A stretch of 64,000 nucleotides of DNA from a virus. Its lineage: Duplodnaviria; Caudoviricetes. The position numbers were made by a program, and so were the translations under genes. The notes beneath the pieces were generated by a model, which was given only the letters and a program-made list of their open reading frames with translations, ran no database searches and had not been told where the DNA came from. The DNA is taken from the IMG/VR virus record IMGVR_UViG_3300043567_000723; one strand, written 5' to 3'. Positions 18,309 to 62,707 of the stretch are shown here, piece by piece; position 1 is the first letter of the stretch, and each line of letters starts with the position of its first letter.

Positions 18309-18382
18309 GACCCCTTAGCTCAGCTGGTTAGAGCATCGGACTTTTAATCCGTTGGTCCTCGGTTCGAATCCGAGAGGGGTCA
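18309..18382 (+). tRNA. tRNA-Lys(UUU)
   Basis: Cloverleaf: GACCCCT/AGGGGTC acceptor, anticodon loop CT-TTT-AA, GGTTCGAATCC T arm; CCA not encoded. Confidence 0.95.
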
Positions 18383-18422
18383 CTGTTTGGGGGTTCGATT
18401 GTTTCACACAAGGATGAGTGAA

Positions 18423-18623
18423 ATGAATTGGGTAGTTATGCTTCTTATGTCGATCTTAATGCCAGTTGTGCAGCCGACTCTGCAAAATGGAGTACAGAAA
18501 ATGTCGGCTAAGATTCAGCAGGTTTCCCAACCAAGCCCTTATATTACGTACCACGAAGGGCGCTGGTGGAAGTTAGAGAACGGTCAGTGGTACGTCTGGC
18601 AGGAGAACAAAAATGCCAATTAG
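18423..18623 (+). CDS. Small exported protein with Trp/Tyr-rich tail
   Basis: Hydrophobic N-terminus; YITYHEGRWWKLENGQWYVWQ. Confidence 0.55.
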   Translation: MNWVVMLLMSILMPVVQPTLQNGVQKMSAKIQQVSQPSPYITYHEGRWWKLENGQWYVWQENKNAN

Positions 18624-18894
18624 TGCGCCGCTGTTTAATCTATATTTCACAGGTGAGTACGACAAGATTCCGACTCGTATGCAGACGGCCCTTACGCGAT
18701 ACGTCACCGACCGCGTGGCTCCCGGTAACTTCCTGCAAGCGGTCATTAAGAACGACCTGCGCGACGCCTGTGGCCGCGCAGATAGTGAGAATCTGCCGCT
18801 GTTACCCCTGTACGTTAAATGGCTTTACAACGTCGCTCCGGGCGGCTGTTGGGGTAGCCTAGACAACTACAAGGCGTGGATGGCTGGTGAGTAA
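18613..18894 (+). CDS. Hypothetical phage protein
   Basis: 93-aa ORF with AGGAG RBS; PGNFLQAVIKNDL...WGS motif. Confidence 0.65.
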   Translation: MPISAPLFNLYFTGEYDKIPTRMQTALTRYVTDRVAPGNFLQAVIKNDLRDACGRADSENLPLLPLYVKWLYNVAPGGCWGSLDNYKAWMAGE

Positions 18895-18924
18895 TCTATA
18901 AGCCTTTTTGCGTAAAAAGTTGCC

Positions 18925-18997
18925 GGGATCGTAGCCCAATGGCAGAGGCAAAGGACTTAAAATCCTTCAAGTGTGGGTTCGAGTCCCACCGATCCTA
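18925..18997 (+). tRNA. tRNA-Leu(UAA) with short variable loop
   Basis: GGGATCG/CGATCCT acceptor, AAGGA-CT-TAA-AA-TCCTT, 5-nt variable region CAAGT, GTGGG-TTCGAGT-CCCAC. Confidence 0.9.
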
Positions 18998-19020
18998 ATG
19001 GTTGATCAAAAGGAGTTTTC

Positions 19021-19371
19021 ATGCCACAAGACACGGTTAAATACAAACCGGTTTGTTGCTACCAGTGCGGAGAAACGTTTCGGTCGTATACGTTCAAAGA
19101 CGTGTACGACATGCGCATTGACGGCGTGATTCACAAAGTGCCCGTATACGCTGTCCCGTGCCGGCGTTGCGACGCCTGCGACATCGCGATAACGGACGCT
19201 GGTTCCGATGAGGCCGTGCAGTGGTCGTACAAAAAGTACCTCAACGAGCACGGATTAAACACGCCATGGCTGCGTTTCCGCCGCTGGATTCGTCGCCGTT
19301 GCCGAATCGCGTGCGACCGGTATAACTGGTACCGGCTGCGATTCGATAAATGGCGTGGCAAATATTCGTAG
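19021..19371 (+). CDS. MqsA/YgiT-type zinc-finger protein without HTH
   Basis: CYQCGE...KDVYDMRIDGVIHKVPVYAVPCRRCD spacing matches the YgiT-type Zn finger; AAGGAG RBS. Confidence 0.55.
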   Translation: MPQDTVKYKPVCCYQCGETFRSYTFKDVYDMRIDGVIHKVPVYAVPCRRCDACDIAITDAGSDEAVQWSYKKYLNEHGLNTPWLRFRRWIRRRCRIACDRYNWYRLRFDKWRGKYS

Positions 19372-19377
19372 CAACGT

Positions 19378-19451
19378 AGGCGCATAGCTCAATTGGTCAG
19401 AGCACCTGCTTTACACGCAGGGGGTTAGGGGTTCGAGTCCCTTTGCGCCTA
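19378..19451 (+). tRNA. tRNA-Val(UAC)
   Basis: AGGCGCA/TGCGCCT acceptor, CCTGC-TT-TAC-AC-GCAGG, GGTTCGAGTCC. Confidence 0.95.
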
Positions 19452-19515
19452 TTGCCCGGTGTGGGGCGTATTCGACAACAGCCGCGCACACCCGCGGTGT
19501 ATTCACGGAGGATTT

Positions 19516-19884
19516 ATGATCCGCATTTTCATGTGCCTGTGTCTGGTTGCGTCTGCTCTCACGGTTGAGGCGGCTCCCCGACGACGATATACCTACAACA
19601 CGACACCGGCAGCCTCGCCAGCGCGTGTGTCTGGGTATACGTCCACCTCCTCTATGCCGACGGGTAATACCGGTTCGGCACAGGGTGTGGCTGAAATACA
19701 GGCTTCGCGCGGCTACGTGGGCCACTTCGGTGGCAACAGTGGTTACGAGGGTTGCGGCTCCGGTTCGACGCCAGAGCAAGCCCTAAACAACTGCTGCTAT
19801 TCCAATAGCGGCATGGCAGTTGTGGATCAGGGCGTAGCCTGTGGCCGTAATGGCCGTTGGTACGCTTGCAAGCGGTACCGGTAA
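19516..19884 (+). CDS. Secreted Cys-containing protein, possibly truncated CAP/SCP-like
   Basis: GGAGG RBS, signal peptide, GHFGGNSGYEGCGSG...NNCCYSNSG...GVACGRNGRWYACKRY. Confidence 0.55.
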   Translation: MIRIFMCLCLVASALTVEAAPRRRYTYNTTPAASPARVSGYTSTSSMPTGNTGSAQGVAEIQASRGYVGHFGGNSGYEGCGSGSTPEQALNNCCYSNSGMAVVDQGVACGRNGRWYACKRYR

Positions 19885-19939
19885 TACTGGCTAATCGGCG
19901 GGCGCTGGAGGAAGCTCAAGCCTCTGGCGCCCGCCCCGC

Positions 19940-20010
19940 GGCCCGCGGAAACCGGTTGGCAAGCGAGTCTTATTAACTCGAAACGCGGGGTTCGACTCCT
20001 CGGCGGGCTA
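19940..20010 (+). tRNA. Atypical tRNA-Ile(UAU)-like gene (weak D arm, U at position 37)
   Basis: GGCCCGC/GCGGGCT acceptor, CGAGT-CT-TAT-TA-ACTCG anticodon arm, CGGGG-TTCGACT-CCTCG T arm; D region short with no clear stem. Confidence 0.65.
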
Positions 20011-20050
20011 TTGTTTGTTCTGTTTGTTATCGACTTTTATAGGAGTTAAC

Positions 20051-20212
20051 ATGCGCTACAAGAACGTAACGGCTGATGGTTCTTTTTTCGCCATTGTCAA
20101 ATGGGCAGAAACCAACAACGCGCATTACGACACGCGCGTTATAAATGGTCGGATACAGATTGGCATGTCGCCATATCACTGGCGTCGTGCTGAATATCAA
20201 GGTGCAGCATGA
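20051..20212 (+). CDS. Small hypothetical protein
   Basis: AGGAG RBS before ATG 20051; coupled to the next ORF. Confidence 0.5.
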   Translation: MRYKNVTADGSFFAIVKWAETNNAHYDTRVINGRIQIGMSPYHWRRAEYQGAA

Positions 20213-20394
20213 CACTTGAACGTGCGGCCGAGCTAGTTTCAGCGCTCCGCGTAGCTGAACCAAACTCATTAGCTGCGCCTGATTTGTTCTCTCACTTTGT
20301 GGATTATTTCAATCTGCAGGGAGAAAAAAAACTAACGCAATTTGCAGAGCTGTGCGGTTTTCTTATCGCTTGCGATGTTAGTCGCGTTGGTTGA
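20209..20394 (+). CDS. Small hypothetical protein
   Basis: ATGA overlap with the previous stop. Confidence 0.45.
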   Translation: MTLERAAELVSALRVAEPNSLAAPDLFSHFVDYFNLQGEKKLTQFAELCGFLIACDVSRVG

Positions 20395-20397
20395 ACG

Positions 20398-20470
20398 GGC
20401 CCCATCGTCTAGAGGCCTAGGACACCACCCTTTCACGGTGGATACCGGGGTTCGAATCCCCGTGGGGTCA
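20398..20470 (+). tRNA. tRNA-Glu(UUC)
   Basis: GGCCCCA/TGGGGTC acceptor, CCACC-CT-TTC-AC-GGTGG, GGTTCGAATCC. Confidence 0.95.
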
Positions 20471-20607
20471 TTGATGAGTAAAACCATTGAACTGTTCCGG
20501 CTGATCCCCGGCAGGAGGTAGTGAGGTTTTAAGTTCGATTTCCCGGTATGCCTATCCACGTGGCTCGTATATCGGAAGCGACCCCTAATCGACACTCATC
20601 AATTTTT

Positions 20608-20681
20608 AACTCGGTAGCCCAATTGGCAGAGGCGGTAGACTTAGGATCTACTTGTTGTGGGTTCGACTCCCACCCGGGTTA
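20608..20681 (+). tRNA. tRNA-Leu(UAG) with short variable loop
   Basis: AACTCGG/CCGGGTT acceptor, GTAGA-CT-TAG-GA-TCTAC, 5-nt variable region TTGTT, GTGGG-TTCGACT-CCCAC. Confidence 0.9.
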
Positions 20682-20683
20682 TT

Positions 20684-20850
20684 GTCTCGGCAGCGTGTGT
20701 ACAGCGCTGCGAAATGCAGGGGGAAGTTAGTCCTCCTTAATTCGTTTGTGGGAGGGTAGCAAAGGTATTGATATCTATGGCCGGGCGCATCGGCCCGGCC
20801 GCCAAATAGATAACAATATGCCCGATAGGACCACGTCCCTGCGGCGAGAC
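20684..20850 (+). ncRNA. Unclassified structured RNA candidate (167 nt)
   Basis: Closing helix GTCTCG/CGAGAC followed by TTTTT; internal helices GCAGCG/CGCTGC, GCAGGG/CCCTGC, CCTCC/GGAGG and a compound stem GTATTG-ATCTAT-GGCCGGGC / GCCCGGCC-ATAGAT-CAATAT. Confidence 0.6.
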
Positions 20851-20871
20851 TTTTTCATCTAGGAGAGAATC

Positions 20872-21246
20872 ATGTGGGACGATGTCATAATTGGCAGCGG
20901 AAATAGTCTGAACGGCGCTTGCCTCGTGCGCAAGCTAGAGAATGCTGATATCTCTGCTAACGCCGCGTCATACTGGATCCACCAAGCCTATCTTGGCGGC
21001 AGCATGACTATTTTCAAGAACACGCTGGAAGGTGACAAGCTGAAAACCATGCTTACCGACGGCACAGCAGATGGCGACATTTCGGTTTGGCTGGAAAACG
21101 TGTTTATTGATAACGTAGAAAGCGGCCGGTTGAAAATGCTTGTGCGGTCGGCCATAATGCGGGCAGAGTCCAATGCCCGTAAAAAGAAGGCTAAGGACAT
21201 TCGCAAAGCTTTTAGCCGCGCATTCAGAAAGATTGATGAGTATTGA
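20872..21246 (+). CDS. Hypothetical protein
   Basis: AGGAG RBS; MWDDVIIGSG start; 124 aa. Confidence 0.65.
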   Translation: MWDDVIIGSGNSLNGACLVRKLENADISANAASYWIHQAYLGGSMTIFKNTLEGDKLKTMLTDGTADGDISVWLENVFIDNVESGRLKMLVRSAIMRAESNARKKKAKDIRKAFSRAFRKIDEY

Positions 21247-21254
21247 TTGATACA

Positions 21255-21596
21255 GGGGGCGTACTGGTATCGACGTATAGACGGAAACACACATTGCATT
21301 CCGTGGTTGATCGAGAGGCCACGTTAATACTCGATTAAATGTTAATTGGCACTTTCAACAGTGTCCCCGCTCTCGCTGCCTGAGCAGTGATCGGGTGAGG
21401 CGCGTGACCTCATCGCCCATCACGCTGGCCGACTGGAAGAAGTCTGACAGGCTGGACAGACAGCCAAAGATGGTGGTAGCCCACCTGACGCCGATAATCG
21501 GCTGGCTTTGTTCATTGTGTAAGCAACAATGAGACATGAATGTAGACGTGTGTGTGGAAACTATTACGGACGCGGGTTCGACTCCCGCCGCCTCCA
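21255..21596 (+). ncRNA. ssrA: tmRNA; tag reading frame 21348-21383 encodes (A)GTFNSVPALAA*
   Basis: 5-prime GGGGGCG...GGTATCGAC and 3-prime GGACGCGGGTTCGACTCCCGCCGCCTCCA tRNA-like domain; pk1-like CCGTGG/CCACG element; tag ends in the LAA degron. Confidence 0.95.
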
Positions 21597-21600
21597 TATA

Positions 21601-45906: not shown

Positions 45907-46941
45907 ATGGCCAAGGGTTTAGACGTCGGGACATCGTTTATCGTACTGGCTTCGGACAGCCTCGAACCGATCAGCTACACCAGCGACGATCAGGCTGAAT
46001 TTATCAATTACAAAGATTTTCGTGACGCGTTCTACGTGATTAAGCCCACTACGCCAGTGGCCACGAAGATGATCGAAAAGGGCCTGCAGGGCAAAGTCTT
46101 CGTCAAGGACAACGACGGTGCTTTTATTCTGCTGGGACAAGACGCTATTGATAAAGCCATCGAGCGCAACGAGTCGGCCAAGCGACCTATGTATCGCGGC
46201 GTTGTGAGCCCCAAGGAAAAAGAAGCCAAGCGCGTACTGGCGTTTATCCTCAAAGAAGTTGCTGGTAAAGCCACCGAGCCAGATGAGAAGCTCGTGTTCT
46301 GCATTCCGGCGCAGCCCGTGGACCAAGAAGACGACGACTTTGACGTTGGTTATCACGAAGACGTGGTCAAAGCAGTCTTGGCCGAACAGGGCTATACTGC
46401 GCGGGCTATTAACGAAGCCGAGGCGCTGTGCTACTCAGAGCTAGCCAACGATGACTACACGGGCATTGGGCTTTCGTGGGGCGCTGGCATGGTCAACGTG
46501 TGCGTGATGCTCAACGGCGAGCCGACTGTGCTGTTTTCGACCACGAAGTCTGGCGACTGGATTGATCGCATGACCGCCGTGGCGACAAACGAGCCAGACT
46601 CGGTTGTGCAGGCTGAGAAAGAGCAGGGCGAGTTCACGATTGGCGAGCCAAACGAGAACGTGATTCTGGCCGCTGTTAGCTCGTACTATGAGCGCCTTAT
46701 TGACTACACCACGAAGCAATTAGCGGCAGCGCTAAGCAATCACAAGGCGTTGCCGAAGTTCAAAGAGCCGATTTTGATAGCAATGGCGGGCGGCACGACT
46801 AAAGCCGCGGGCTTTGTGGAAATGTTCCGGCGCAAGCTCGAAGAGAATAATTTTCCGCTGCCAGTGAAAGAAGTCCGGCACGCCTACGACCCGCTGCACG
46901 CTGTCGCGCGTGGCTGTCTCATTGCTGCCAAGATTCTCTAA
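45907..46941 (+). CDS. Actin-like (ASKHA) ATPase
   Basis: GLDVGTS (phosphate 1), AINEAEA (connect 1), GLSWGAGMVNV (phosphate 2), AMAGGTT (adenosine), DPLHAVARG (connect 2). Confidence 0.85.
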   Translation: MAKGLDVGTSFIVLASDSLEPISYTSDDQAEFINYKDFRDAFYVIKPTTPVATKMIEKGLQGKVFVKDNDGAFILLGQDAIDKAIERNESAKRPMYRGVVSPKEKEAKRVLAFILKEVAGKATEPDEKLVFCIPAQPVDQEDDDFDVGYHEDVVKAVLAEQGYTARAINEAEALCYSELANDDYTGIGLSWGAGMVNVCVMLNGEPTVLFSTTKSGDWIDRMTAVATNEPDSVVQAEKEQGEFTIGEPNENVILAAVSSYYERLIDYTTKQLAAALSNHKALPKFKEPILIAMAGGTTKAAGFVEMFRRKLEENNFPLPVKEVRHAYDPLHAVARGCLIAAKIL

Positions 46942-47041: not shown

Positions 47042-47500
47042 ATGGGTACACGCCAGCGTTTCGACGGAATTATCATTTCGCATCTCGGAAATATCGCTGG
47101 CCGGGTTCCAGAACGTGAAAATACGCTTAAATATCTGCAGGCGGCGTTGAAAGCTGGCTGGCACGTAATGGCAGACGTGCAGTTTATTAATGGCGCGTTT
47201 ATCTTGCCGAATGACAACGGTTTTAGTGCCGCCCCGCCCAGTTTCTTCTCGAATCAACGCGTCTGGTCCCGCTGCCAGAACGCCGAAACCATGGATGCGC
47301 TGTGCAACATTGGCGCGCATGCTTTTATTAATGCCGACGCGCCTTTGGTGTTAACAAGCGCGCAATTTATCTGGACGCTTCCGCCCCGCGAACTTTCTCC
47401 GCGCTCTATCGCGGTTTATCCAGAACTGGCCGAAGCTGATTGGCTCGAACAATATGAGCCAGCTGGCCTGTGCAGCAATGAACCGATGAACTACATTTAG
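47042..47500 (+). CDS. Degenerate glycerophosphodiester phosphodiesterase-like protein
   Basis: IISHLGN...ENT...ALKAGWHVMADV resembles the GDPD N-terminus (SHRG...ENT...E.DV) with catalytic residues altered. Confidence 0.55.
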   Translation: MGTRQRFDGIIISHLGNIAGRVPERENTLKYLQAALKAGWHVMADVQFINGAFILPNDNGFSAAPPSFFSNQRVWSRCQNAETMDALCNIGAHAFINADAPLVLTSAQFIWTLPPRELSPRSIAVYPELAEADWLEQYEPAGLCSNEPMNYI

Positions 47501-47587
47501 TTTTAGTTTGTTGTGTCATCGCGTTCTTTGACAATTTGGCGGCCTGTGCGCAATTCTGTACATCAGCTCGTTATGGGCGTACAGAGT

Positions 47588-47596
47588 TGTTAAAAT
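47588..47596 (+). promoter_or_regulatory. Extended -10 element (TGnTAAAAT) just upstream of a structured RNA candidate
   Basis: TGTTAAAAT ends 6 nt before the closing helix at 47603. Confidence 0.4.
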
Positions 47597-47602
47597 TGAG
47601 GT

Positions 47603-47821
47603 GTGTCAAAAGTTAGTCGTGGTGGTCGACTGGTTAGGCGTTTCTTCTGCGGCATGGATGCGGCAGGGGTTACAGGTTCCGTGGTCAGATTTTGTCGGGC
47701 TCACGGGCGGAGGAGCAGCAAATGCCACACGGGATAATTTATATCCTTGAAAGTTGCTGCGGAACCGCGGCTTCGGCCGTGGTAGGGCCTGCGGACAGGG
47801 GATCGCAGGGGCTTTTGACAC
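47603..47821 (+). ncRNA. Unclassified large structured RNA candidate (219 nt)
   Basis: Perfect 10-bp closing helix GTGTCAAAAG/CTTTTGACAC; internal AGTCG/CGACT, GGTTCCG/CGGAACC, GCAGCAA/TTGCTGC, GGATA/TATCC, GCGGC-TTCG-GCCGT, CCTGCG/CGCAGG. Confidence 0.65.
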
Positions 47822-47865
47822 ATTTTGTTTGACGTAAGTGTATATCTTGCAGGCAGTTAGTAATT

Positions 47866-48222
47866 ATGAACGATGAATTTATTCATTCATTGTCCGTGCT
47901 TTTTAGCGCGTTTGGCGCAGCTGCTTTTGCTGGGCTGGCAACCCTTTTGCGGTTTGCCAAGAAGTTATCTAAACTAGCAGTGGTCAGCGCAATGTTGAAC
48001 GCCGGATTTCTGGGGCTCGCCATTGCGTTGATTTGGTATCAGAATTATCGGAAAGCCGAAAACGTCTATGGGCTGATCGGCATTTGCGTGCTGGCGGGCA
48101 TGGGCGGCTCGACGCTGACAGATCTGGCGATTTCGTTATTGTCAGGCGCGGGTATCAAAGTAACCATTGTGCACGAACGCGATCGACAAGGAGATCACGA
48201 GCATGACAATGACGAATCGTAA
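47866..48222 (+). CDS. Holin-like membrane protein (3-4 TM)
   Basis: Short, Gly/Ala-rich TM helices with a charged C-terminus. Confidence 0.55.
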   Translation: MNDEFIHSLSVLFSAFGAAAFAGLATLLRFAKKLSKLAVVSAMLNAGFLGLAIALIWYQNYRKAENVYGLIGICVLAGMGGSTLTDLAISLLSGAGIKVTIVHERDRQGDHEHDNDES

Positions 48223-48358: not shown

Positions 48359-48434
48359 TGCCTGATAGCTCAGTTGGTAGAGCAGGCGACTGTTAATCGC
48401 CGGGTCGTAGGTTCAAGTCCTACTCAGGCAGCCA
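48359..48434 (+). tRNA. tRNA-Asn(GUU) with encoded CCA
   Basis: TGCCTGA/TCAGGCA acceptor, GGCGA-CT-GTT-AA-TCGCC, GGTTCAAGTCC, G-CCA end. Confidence 0.95.
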
Positions 48435-61996: not shown

Positions 61997-62707
61997 ATGT
62001 TCACTGTTAACCCCGAACTAATCGCGCTGGCAAAGGCGCGATTTGAGAAGTCTGCGCTCGTGCCCGGTGCCGCCGTTGATCCGGCTGCGGCTGGGGCTGC
62101 ACCGCCAGTAGACCCTGCGACCATGGGAGCAGTGCCGCCGGTTGACCCCGCGATGGCCGGCGCCGCGCCCCCGATGGATCCCGCGGCAATGGGTATGCCT
62201 GCTGCGCCTGCGCCCATGCCTGCTGCTCCGGCGGCGCCGGGTGCGGCCCCCGCATCTGGAATGCAGCAAAAGTTAAAACCAGAACAAATGATGCAGATGC
62301 TCGATTACCGGCTTTACAACATGCAGCAGCAGCTTACCGCGATTATGAACGCGATGGGCGTGCAAGTTCCGCCGGAATCGCTCGTCCTGCCGCCGGGTAC
62401 TACTGGCGCCCCGCCCGCTGAAACAGCGCTGCCGGGTGGATCGATGGCTCCTCCGCCGCCGGATCAAAGCGCGCAGGGTGGCATGCAGCCGCCCGGTGGC
62501 CCGCTTCCGCCGGGTGGTCCGCTCCCGCCGAACGCCGCACCGCAAGATCCGACAGCGAAGGTTGCTTGGTGGAACGTAGAAGCGGAAAAGCCGGCGTCGT
62601 ACATCGGCTATCCTGTGCCGCAAAACCCGAATCAACCAACTGACGTGCAGATTAAAGCAAATGCCATATCCGCCATGATTCGGAGTCTTGCGGGCAATGC
62701 TGGTTAA
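61997..62707 (+). CDS. Pro/Ala/Met-rich low-complexity protein between the RNAP genes
   Basis: GGAGG RBS; FEKSAL and TAKVAW motifs; PxxPAAMG repeats. Confidence 0.7.
   Translation: MFTVNPELIALAKARFEKSALVPGAAVDPAAAGAAPPVDPATMGAVPPVDPAMAGAAPPMDPAAMGMPAAPAPMPAAPAAPGAAPASGMQQKLKPEQMMQMLDYRLYNMQQQLTAIMNAMGVQVPPESLVLPPGTTGAPPAETALPGGSMAPPPPDQSAQGGMQPPGGPLPPGGPLPPNAAPQDPTAKVAWWNVEAEKPASYIGYPVPQNPNQPTDVQIKANAISAMIRSLAGNAG

Follow-up and report, generated by a model that had tools for sequence, protein, structure and literature searches.

Organization of the locus

The window, i.e., the whole stretch of 64,000 nt that was analyzed, belongs to an IMG/VR virus record of 157.5 kb that is 77% complete, and every gene of these 64 kb lies on the plus strand. 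The gap at 47501–47865 is intergenic and separates an ORF of 152 aa (47042–47500) from an ORF of 118 aa. Within this gap, a folded stretch of 219 nt at 47603–47821 begins 7 nt after an extended −10 element (Table 1).

As for more distant neighbors, an actin-fold protein (45907–46941; Pfam Volactin, E = 1e-61) is encoded two genes upstream, and in the relatives that have no 152-aa gene the RNA directly follows the actin-fold gene. In INPHARED, this actin-like neighbor matches only two uncultured huge phages, with 33% identity. The window also carries tRNA genes (Lys, Leu x2, Val, Glu, and Asn) and a one-piece tmRNA (tag GTFNSVPALAA) at 18309–21599 and 48359–48434.

Table 1. Features of the RNA locus, with positions in the window
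Feature	Coordinates	Strand	Remarks
Extended −10 TGTTAAAAT (TGnTAnnnT)	47588–47596	+	Based on sequence and conservation in relatives
P1, 5′ strand	47603–47614	+	Pairs with 47810–47821; based on fold and covariation
P2 hairpin	47615–47631	+	7-nt loop UGGUGGU; 4 of 5 pairs covary, 100% paired
J2/3 junction	47632–47638	+	Invariant GGUUAG(G) in alignments of 41 and 51 sequences
P3	47645–47668	+	Lower stem variable, apical hairpin invariant; 6 of 8 pairs covary
P4 hairpin	47679–47706	+	Invariant internal loop (CGUGGUCAG ... CG.G..C.CG); 3 pairs covary, 5 never vary
J4/5 junction	47707–47714	+	Invariant GG-N-GG, GGAGG in the window
P5/P5a	47715–47760	+	Conserved internal loops AAUGCCRCAC and GAAAGU; 11 of 13 pairs covary
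P6 hairpin	47764–47783	+	8 of 8 pairs covary; C(UUCG)G at 47771–47776, tetraloop at 47772–47775
P7 hairpin	47788–47809	+	Invariant loop A(N)AGGGGA and invariant G-U closing pair; 4 of 7 pairs covary
P1, 3′ strand	47810–47821	+	Includes TTGACA (47815–47820), itself not conserved
Linker to the start codon	47822–47865	+	Short, variable, without terminator; 21–61 nt in relatives
118-aa three-TM protein gene	47866–48222	+	Always downstream of the RNA

Promoter and start of transcription

The first-pass annotation of this DNA placed an extended −10 element at the 5′ edge of the RNA; the motif is present there, and the promoter is conserved in relatives. The TAnnnT hexamer is located at a fixed distance 5′ of P1 in 53 of the 54 relatives, its end is separated from the first P1 pair by 5–8 nt in 45 of them, and the TGn extension is found in 40. 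The conservation block reported by blastn (68–93% identity in relatives) starts sharply at 47588 and ends at 47814–47826. According to the −10 spacing, transcription is predicted to start near G47603. Given the spacing between the hexamer and P1 across the members, the 5′ end of the RNA is very probably the first base of P1.

In 8 divergent members out of 54, the hexamer ends 26–27 nt upstream of P1. In these sequences (L161, L133, L154, L191, L093, L171, L132, and L179) the space between the −10 element and P1 is filled by an extra covarying 5′ hairpin, e.g., UUUGCGGGC-GAAA-GCACGCAAA, situated 20–30 nt before P1.

Further upstream, a TCTTTGACAA motif (47525–47534) lies ~55 nt before the −10 element and is kept in most of the relatives having the 152-aa gene. 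It is followed by a small hairpin (47556–47584), the arms of which vary in sequence and remain complementary among relatives. Together, the two could represent a tandem promoter, an operator, or a terminator of the upstream gene. Regarding a phage promoter motif repeated in intergenic regions, k-mer enrichment gave nothing clear, and TGNTAWAMT occurs 4 times in the window versus 6.5 expected.

Covariation and reality of the RNA

The stretch 47603–47821 is a real, intricately folded RNA of ~220 nt that belongs to an undescribed family. For comparison, protein searches that used the two flanking genes as queries yielded 93 loci, mostly on ~200-kb phage contigs. Among 53–54 distinct relatives, standard pairs occupy 97.6% of pair cells, compared with 83.4% after shuffling and 36–44% when the partners are slid. 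Changes on both sides are observed in 45 of 60 pairs, and 0 of 500 shuffles reach any of these measures, while RNAalifold reports 65 pairs, 49 of them with double changes. The covariance model (237 positions, 60 pairs) scores the 54 distinct members at 169–245 bits, compared with at most 15 bits for chance pattern matches. The structure first proposed from the window is thus conserved in relatives and carries compensatory changes.

The minimum free energy (MFE) of the plus strand is −93.7 kcal/mol (z = −4.1), a value that none of 200 shuffles attains. The centroid structure is nearly the same as the MFE structure, and the minus strand reaches just −70 kcal/mol. Three pairs (47613:47811, 47614:47810, and 47794:47803) are invariant G-U or U-G, which identifies the plus strand as the RNA strand.

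In a DNA cruciform, or on the opposite strand, invariant G-U pairs would turn into A-C mismatches, which counts against the reading of the locus as a DNA-level element (an origin, a packaging or a recombination site) or as a small protein gene. This reading can appeal to inverted repeats, which exist on both strands, and to open frames of 70–79 codons in some members. However, no frame on either strand is open in all 54 members, frames of at least 70 codons are absent in 25 of the 54, the lengths fall in all three classes modulo 3, and contigs from RNA libraries exist. A function other than that of an RNA is hence most improbable.

According to Rfam 15, the RNA is absent from the library, which settles one check suggested by the first-pass annotation: when the whole window is searched at the gathering score, no family hits the element. 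No hit appears at 47400–47950 even at E ≤ 10, and none on five divergent relatives at E ≤ 1. ARAGORN and Rfam, which do detect the six tRNAs and the tmRNA of the window, report nothing tRNA-, tmRNA-, or tRNA-like at 47588–47830.

Fold of the RNA

The RNA is enclosed by P1, in which GUGUCAAAAG (47603–47612) is perfectly complementary to CUUUUGACAC (47812–47821). The 10-bp closing helix of the first-pass annotation is therefore correct and is lengthened by two G-U pairs, reaching 47614/47810 and 12 bp. Compensatory changes are found in 9 of 11 modeled pairs of P1, and 99.3% of its cells are paired. As for the TTGACA pointed out as a −35 consensus in the 3′ strand, the hexamer is present, but relatives have CGGTAC, CGACAA, or CAGCAC in its columns, which covary with the opposite strand of P1. 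Being unconserved and part of a covarying helix, it is rejected as a −35 element.

All six helices originally described inside P1 (P2, P3, P4, P5/P5a, P6, and P7) and the C(UUCG)G are present. The loop of P6 reads UUCG, UUUUAU, UUAAAU, or UUCGC among relatives, and since it is not conserved, P6 is probably a structural spacer. The region 47760–47766, where alternative pairings had been taken as a hint at a switch, consists of the variable J5/6 linker and the beginning of P6; one fold fits all relatives, and the suggestion is dropped.

In addition to the helices, five pairs between the P2 loop (47622–47626) and the 5′ internal loop of P5 (47724–47728) form a pseudoknot. All 51 sequences are compatible with it at all 5 pairs, and 3 of the pairs covary (UA/CG/UG in 37/5/9, GC/GU/AU in 48/2/1, and UG/CG/UA in 10/26/15 sequences). 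Two other candidate features were considered. A second pseudoknot, UCUUC:GGAGG, was rejected with only ~61% of compatible cells. The GGAGG of J4/5 resembles a Shine-Dalgarno sequence; since any of the four bases can occupy its middle position in relatives, it is not a Shine-Dalgarno mimic.

About 60 bases in loops and junctions are invariant (alignments of 41 and 51 distinct sequences). Such a number of invariant unpaired nucleotides, together with a pseudoknot that covaries among diverged phages, implies specific recognition or a tertiary architecture. The RNA is thus very unlikely to be a passive 5′ stabilizer or spacer that guards the mRNA from 5′-end-dependent decay with no specific partner: the 5′ end is indeed sequestered in P1 right at the predicted start, but a simple hairpin would suffice for this purpose.

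Distribution of the family

The RNA is present in one copy per genome. A motif scan of IMG/VR yields 66 true members among 70 hits, and a scan of metagenome contigs (JGI Ga... records) yields 22 among 80 loci. The other metagenome loci are unrelated, many of them showing a 52-nt-spaced pattern like that of Streptococcus contigs. Searched in the genomes of 185,579 bacterial and archaeal species, the motif has 33 hits, 0 of which are confirmed (no nhmmer match, best covariance score of 15 bits), i.e., no cellular homologue is found at the stringency of the motif scan. Among the cultured phages of INPHARED, neither blastn with the locus nor tblastn with the 118-aa protein gives a match. Among the holders listed for a 1.2-kb stretch, the DNA runs are labeled as lake or freshwater metagenomes, and no RNA holder is included. 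Based on this distribution, the family is so far restricted to a single clade of uncultured ~200-kb freshwater phages.

Relation to the downstream gene

In every relative (54 members), the 118-aa gene starts 21–61 nt after P1, a gap that in many relatives is too short for a separate promoter. No terminator follows P1, either in the window or in any relative. Since there is no terminator and the same gene invariably follows at this distance, the RNA is the 5′ leader of the mRNA of the 118-aa gene, whatever its further role. The upstream neighbor varies, the 152-aa gene being absent from several relatives, whereas the downstream gene is constant. The RNA was initially regarded as an independent phage noncoding RNA; it is a structured RNA with its own conserved promoter, but, as a leader, it is not independent. 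A link to tRNA-Asn was also considered and discarded because this tRNA is found downstream in only part of the relatives.

In the 118-aa protein, three TM helices are predicted and the C-terminus is charged, as read by eye from the translation rather than with a prediction tool, and it matches no Pfam or NCBIfam family. Its Atlas language-model feature score versus Phage_holin_3 clusters is 0.90–0.91, so by language-model features only it is holin-like, which serves as a lead. It is unusually conserved: of the 270 homologues, the best 120 are all at least 71% identical. One homologue (P0025), on a contig of 202,923 nt, carries the NCBI label Sphingorhabdus sp.; either a phage genome was mis-binned or the label hints at the host group.

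At the head of the 118-aa gene, the initiation codon and codons 2–11 often form a hairpin (47865–47898 in the window; GACGAA... / ...UUCGUUGUC), for which the window has a synonymous compensatory pair, U-A versus C-G in relatives. The register of this hairpin shifts in some clades, so the evidence for it is weak, and selection for it is uncertain.

The constant position immediately 5′ of one gene on the same strand is what a riboswitch-like or factor-sensing leader would have. In such a leader, the junction core would recognize either a small molecule or some protein other than CsrA and thereby gate the translation or decay of the membrane-protein mRNA, e.g., to time lysis, and the GGA loops described below would be tertiary or protein contacts unrelated to CsrA. 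The conservation is also of the aptamer type, with covarying helices and invariant junctions and internal loops (GGUUAGG, GG-N-GG, GUGGUCAG, AAUGCCRCAC, and GAAAGU), and the start-codon region tends to sit in a hairpin. However, no expression platform is conserved: the linker is variable and contains no terminator, no anti-Shine-Dalgarno helix, and no conserved alternative helix. In addition, P1 with its 12 pairs is long and stable, unlike ligand-stabilized P1 helices, and with a single associated gene family of unknown function the ligand is not guessable. This reading is therefore rather unlikely.

Contigs from RNA libraries

RNA libraries of four freshwater studies contain one short contig each (175, 185, 195, and 255 nt) of a relative. 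These contigs, which show neither RNA ends nor levels, cover only 47612–47822, and the flanking protein-coding genes have no contig. One of them extends 42 nt beyond P1. The only other cover by RNA contigs near the locus is in the tRNA-Asn region. The pattern weakly suggests that the leader persists as a separate stable RNA of ~220 nt.

A trans-acting stable RNA that merely shares a transcript with the next gene and is later cut out of it would leave contigs of this sort without neighboring coding sequence. It could be a ribozyme or a self-assembling ornate RNA, form the scaffold of an RNP, or act as a decoy for an RNA-binding or defence protein of the host. Neither a terminator nor a recognizable processing site is found, however, the one longer contig runs past P1, and the contigs are silent about ends and levels. 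A long helix locks the 5′ and 3′ ends, as in stable RNAs, the complexity rivals that of orphan structured RNAs, and the RNA has a single copy per genome and a strong constitutive-type promoter. On the other hand, a trans-acting RNA does not need strict linkage to one gene in all relatives. On balance, such a role is unlikely.

GGA loops and a possible link to CsrA

Invariant GGA is found in exactly two apical loops, those of P3 and P7, and neither loop has an RNA partner. The apex of P3 (C47653–G47660) reads CAUGGAUG, i.e., CA-N-GGA-N-G, which is the CsrA/RsmE consensus. It appears as CA[G/U]GGA[U/C]G in 54 of 54 members, varying at the two N positions only, and its closing C-G pair is invariant. 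In 11 members the first loop base changes from G to U, which rules out a GNRA tetraloop at this apex. The second GGA (47800–47802, loop of P7) is also kept in 54 of 54 relatives. The RsmE/CsrA consensus is A/U-CANGGANG-U/A, and the one obtained by SELEX is RUACARGGAUGU (PMC6849547); some members read UACAGGGAUGU, matching the latter at 11 of 12 positions.

As for the abundance of these motifs, GGA is not enriched in the RNA of the window (7 observed versus 5.6 ± 2.0 expected), and the other GGA columns are present in just 13–37 of 54 members, compared with the two invariant ones. By our own estimate from base composition, CANGGANG would occur by chance in ~7% of sequences of the same size and composition. 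Genome-wide it is not enriched either (51 versus 49 ± 7). Inspection of the 54 members reveals no conserved GGA over the Shine-Dalgarno sequence or start codon of the 118-aa gene; GGA near the start codon is found only in some clades, e.g., as GGGAG or GGAGAAG. Therefore, the classical geometry of CsrA repression is missing.

CsrA (PF02599) is encoded in 10 of 10 near-complete relatives, with scores of 50–72 bits, above the cut-off, and the protein looks canonical (MLVLSRKKEQEVVIGDGI...VRGELI). The gene lies ~73 kb from the RNA in relatives, past the end of the window's record, and it is not found in that record, which is 77% complete. Only ~1.2% of sequenced phages carry csrA (PMC7366521), and the role of phage CsrA has hardly been put to the test (PMC11879866). 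The co-occurrence of CsrA and the RNA falls within one clade and counts as a single evolutionary observation. The CsrA of relatives also has a Thr/Ser-rich C-terminal extension of 35–45 aa (L198 1360–1650, minus strand; also L199–L202).

Outside the RNA, CA-N-GGAGG sites precede several genes (61985 and 55930 in the window, 120578 and 121058 in the genome). They combine a Shine-Dalgarno sequence with the CsrA consensus; one of them, CACGGAGG, is located 12 nt before the ORF at 61997. The genes with such sites are possible members of a phage CsrA regulon.

Proposed explanation

The RNA is probably a phage gene-control RNA. The specific reading preferred here, tentatively, is that it may be a CsrA-binding leader or decoy. 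Transcription from the host-type extended −10 element would begin at about the first base of P1, and the product folds compactly into the 12-bp closing helix, the six inner helices, and the loop-to-internal-loop pseudoknot. This fold displays the two invariant GGA hairpin loops, with the P3 apex as a consensus high-affinity CsrA/RsmE site. A CsrA dimer, either the phage's own or alternatively that of the host, would bind both GGA loops, and the binding would determine how the downstream mRNA is translated or how stable it is. Alternatively, the leader would serve as a CsrA decoy, an option considered because it seems to persist as a discrete species of ~220 nt.

The invariant junctions and the pseudoknot far exceed the needs of any known CsrA target, which suggests a further function or partner. 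One extension, quite unlikely as it stands, is a two-input switch timing lysis, in which the core and the pseudoknot would sense some signal (metabolite, second messenger, or protein other than CsrA) and the GGA loops would couple it to phage CsrA, so as to gate the lysis-type membrane protein of a giant phage. The same low standing is given to a small self-assembling or catalytic ornate RNA.

Comparison with known systems

In comparison with leaders regulated by CsrA/RsmE (glgC, hcnA, cfcR, and moaA), the phage RNA is likewise a 5′ leader with a hairpin-loop GGA matching CA-N-GGA-N-G, a second GGA loop free for the other face of the CsrA dimer, and a cognate csrA in the same genomes (those of relatives). 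In the moaA leader, CsrA acts on a structured RNA. Unlike these leaders, the phage RNA has no conserved GGA over the Shine-Dalgarno sequence or start codon, its two GGA sites are 144 nt apart, and they stand on a large domain of six helices and a pseudoknot, in which many other bases are invariant.

The sponges CsrB/CsrC and RsmX/Y/Z offer a second comparison, the phage RNA being a possible decoy with GGA hairpins and occurring as a discrete species in RNA libraries. The 5′ UTR of Salmonella fimAICDFGH, which titrates CsrA, is a precedent for an mRNA leader acting as a sponge. CsrA sponges, however, contain 5–22 GGA hairpins and end in a Rho-independent terminator, and their sequences are otherwise little conserved, whereas the phage RNA has two conserved GGA, no GGA enrichment, no terminator, and a highly conserved core.

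With ROOL, GOLLD, raiA, and HEARO the phage RNA shares a complex multi-helix pseudoknotted fold, strong covariation, invariant junctions, and a phage-borne location that in some members is near tRNA genes. In contrast to them, it is fixed as the leader of one gene, and it does not match their Rfam models; it is also much smaller than ROOL or GOLLD.

Regarding phage lysis genes, the sdi stem-loop of lambda S and the hairpins of T4 e, soc, and 49 hide the ribosome-binding site and are single small hairpins. The phage RNA resembles them as a structured 5′ end of a small membrane or lysis-type gene (the holin assignment being a lead), the start codon of which often sits inside a hairpin. It differs in being an autonomous domain of 220 nt that does not itself include the ribosome-binding site.

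Two further RNAs were compared and rejected. P4 has GGUCAG in its 5′ strand, a feature shared with 4.5S SRP RNA, but the P4 loop is UUU, UUA, or UACG with no GNRA, the 3′ strand has no AGCA symmetric loop of SRP helix 8, and there is no Rfam hit at E ≤ 10. Like 6S RNA, the phage RNA is promoter-led and perhaps abundant; however, the six-helix fold bears out the first-pass view that it is multi-branched and no 6S-like rod, it has no central bubble, and no Rfam 6S hit appears at E ≤ 10.

Implications

Complex, strongly covarying folds of such size have mostly proved to be riboswitches, ribozymes, or RNP cores, and new ones are rare. With its small size (~220 nt), defined promoter, pseudoknot, dozens of variants, and presence in lake metatranscriptomes, this RNA is directly usable for structure work, namely structure probing and cryo-EM. 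If CsrA is not involved, the invariant core would point to some other ligand or partner. If the CsrA link is true, the RNA would be, as far as the literature found shows, the first proposed RNA partner of a CsrA that a phage encodes. It would then represent a new architecture of CsrA recognition and post-transcriptional control tied to a lysis-type gene in giant phages.
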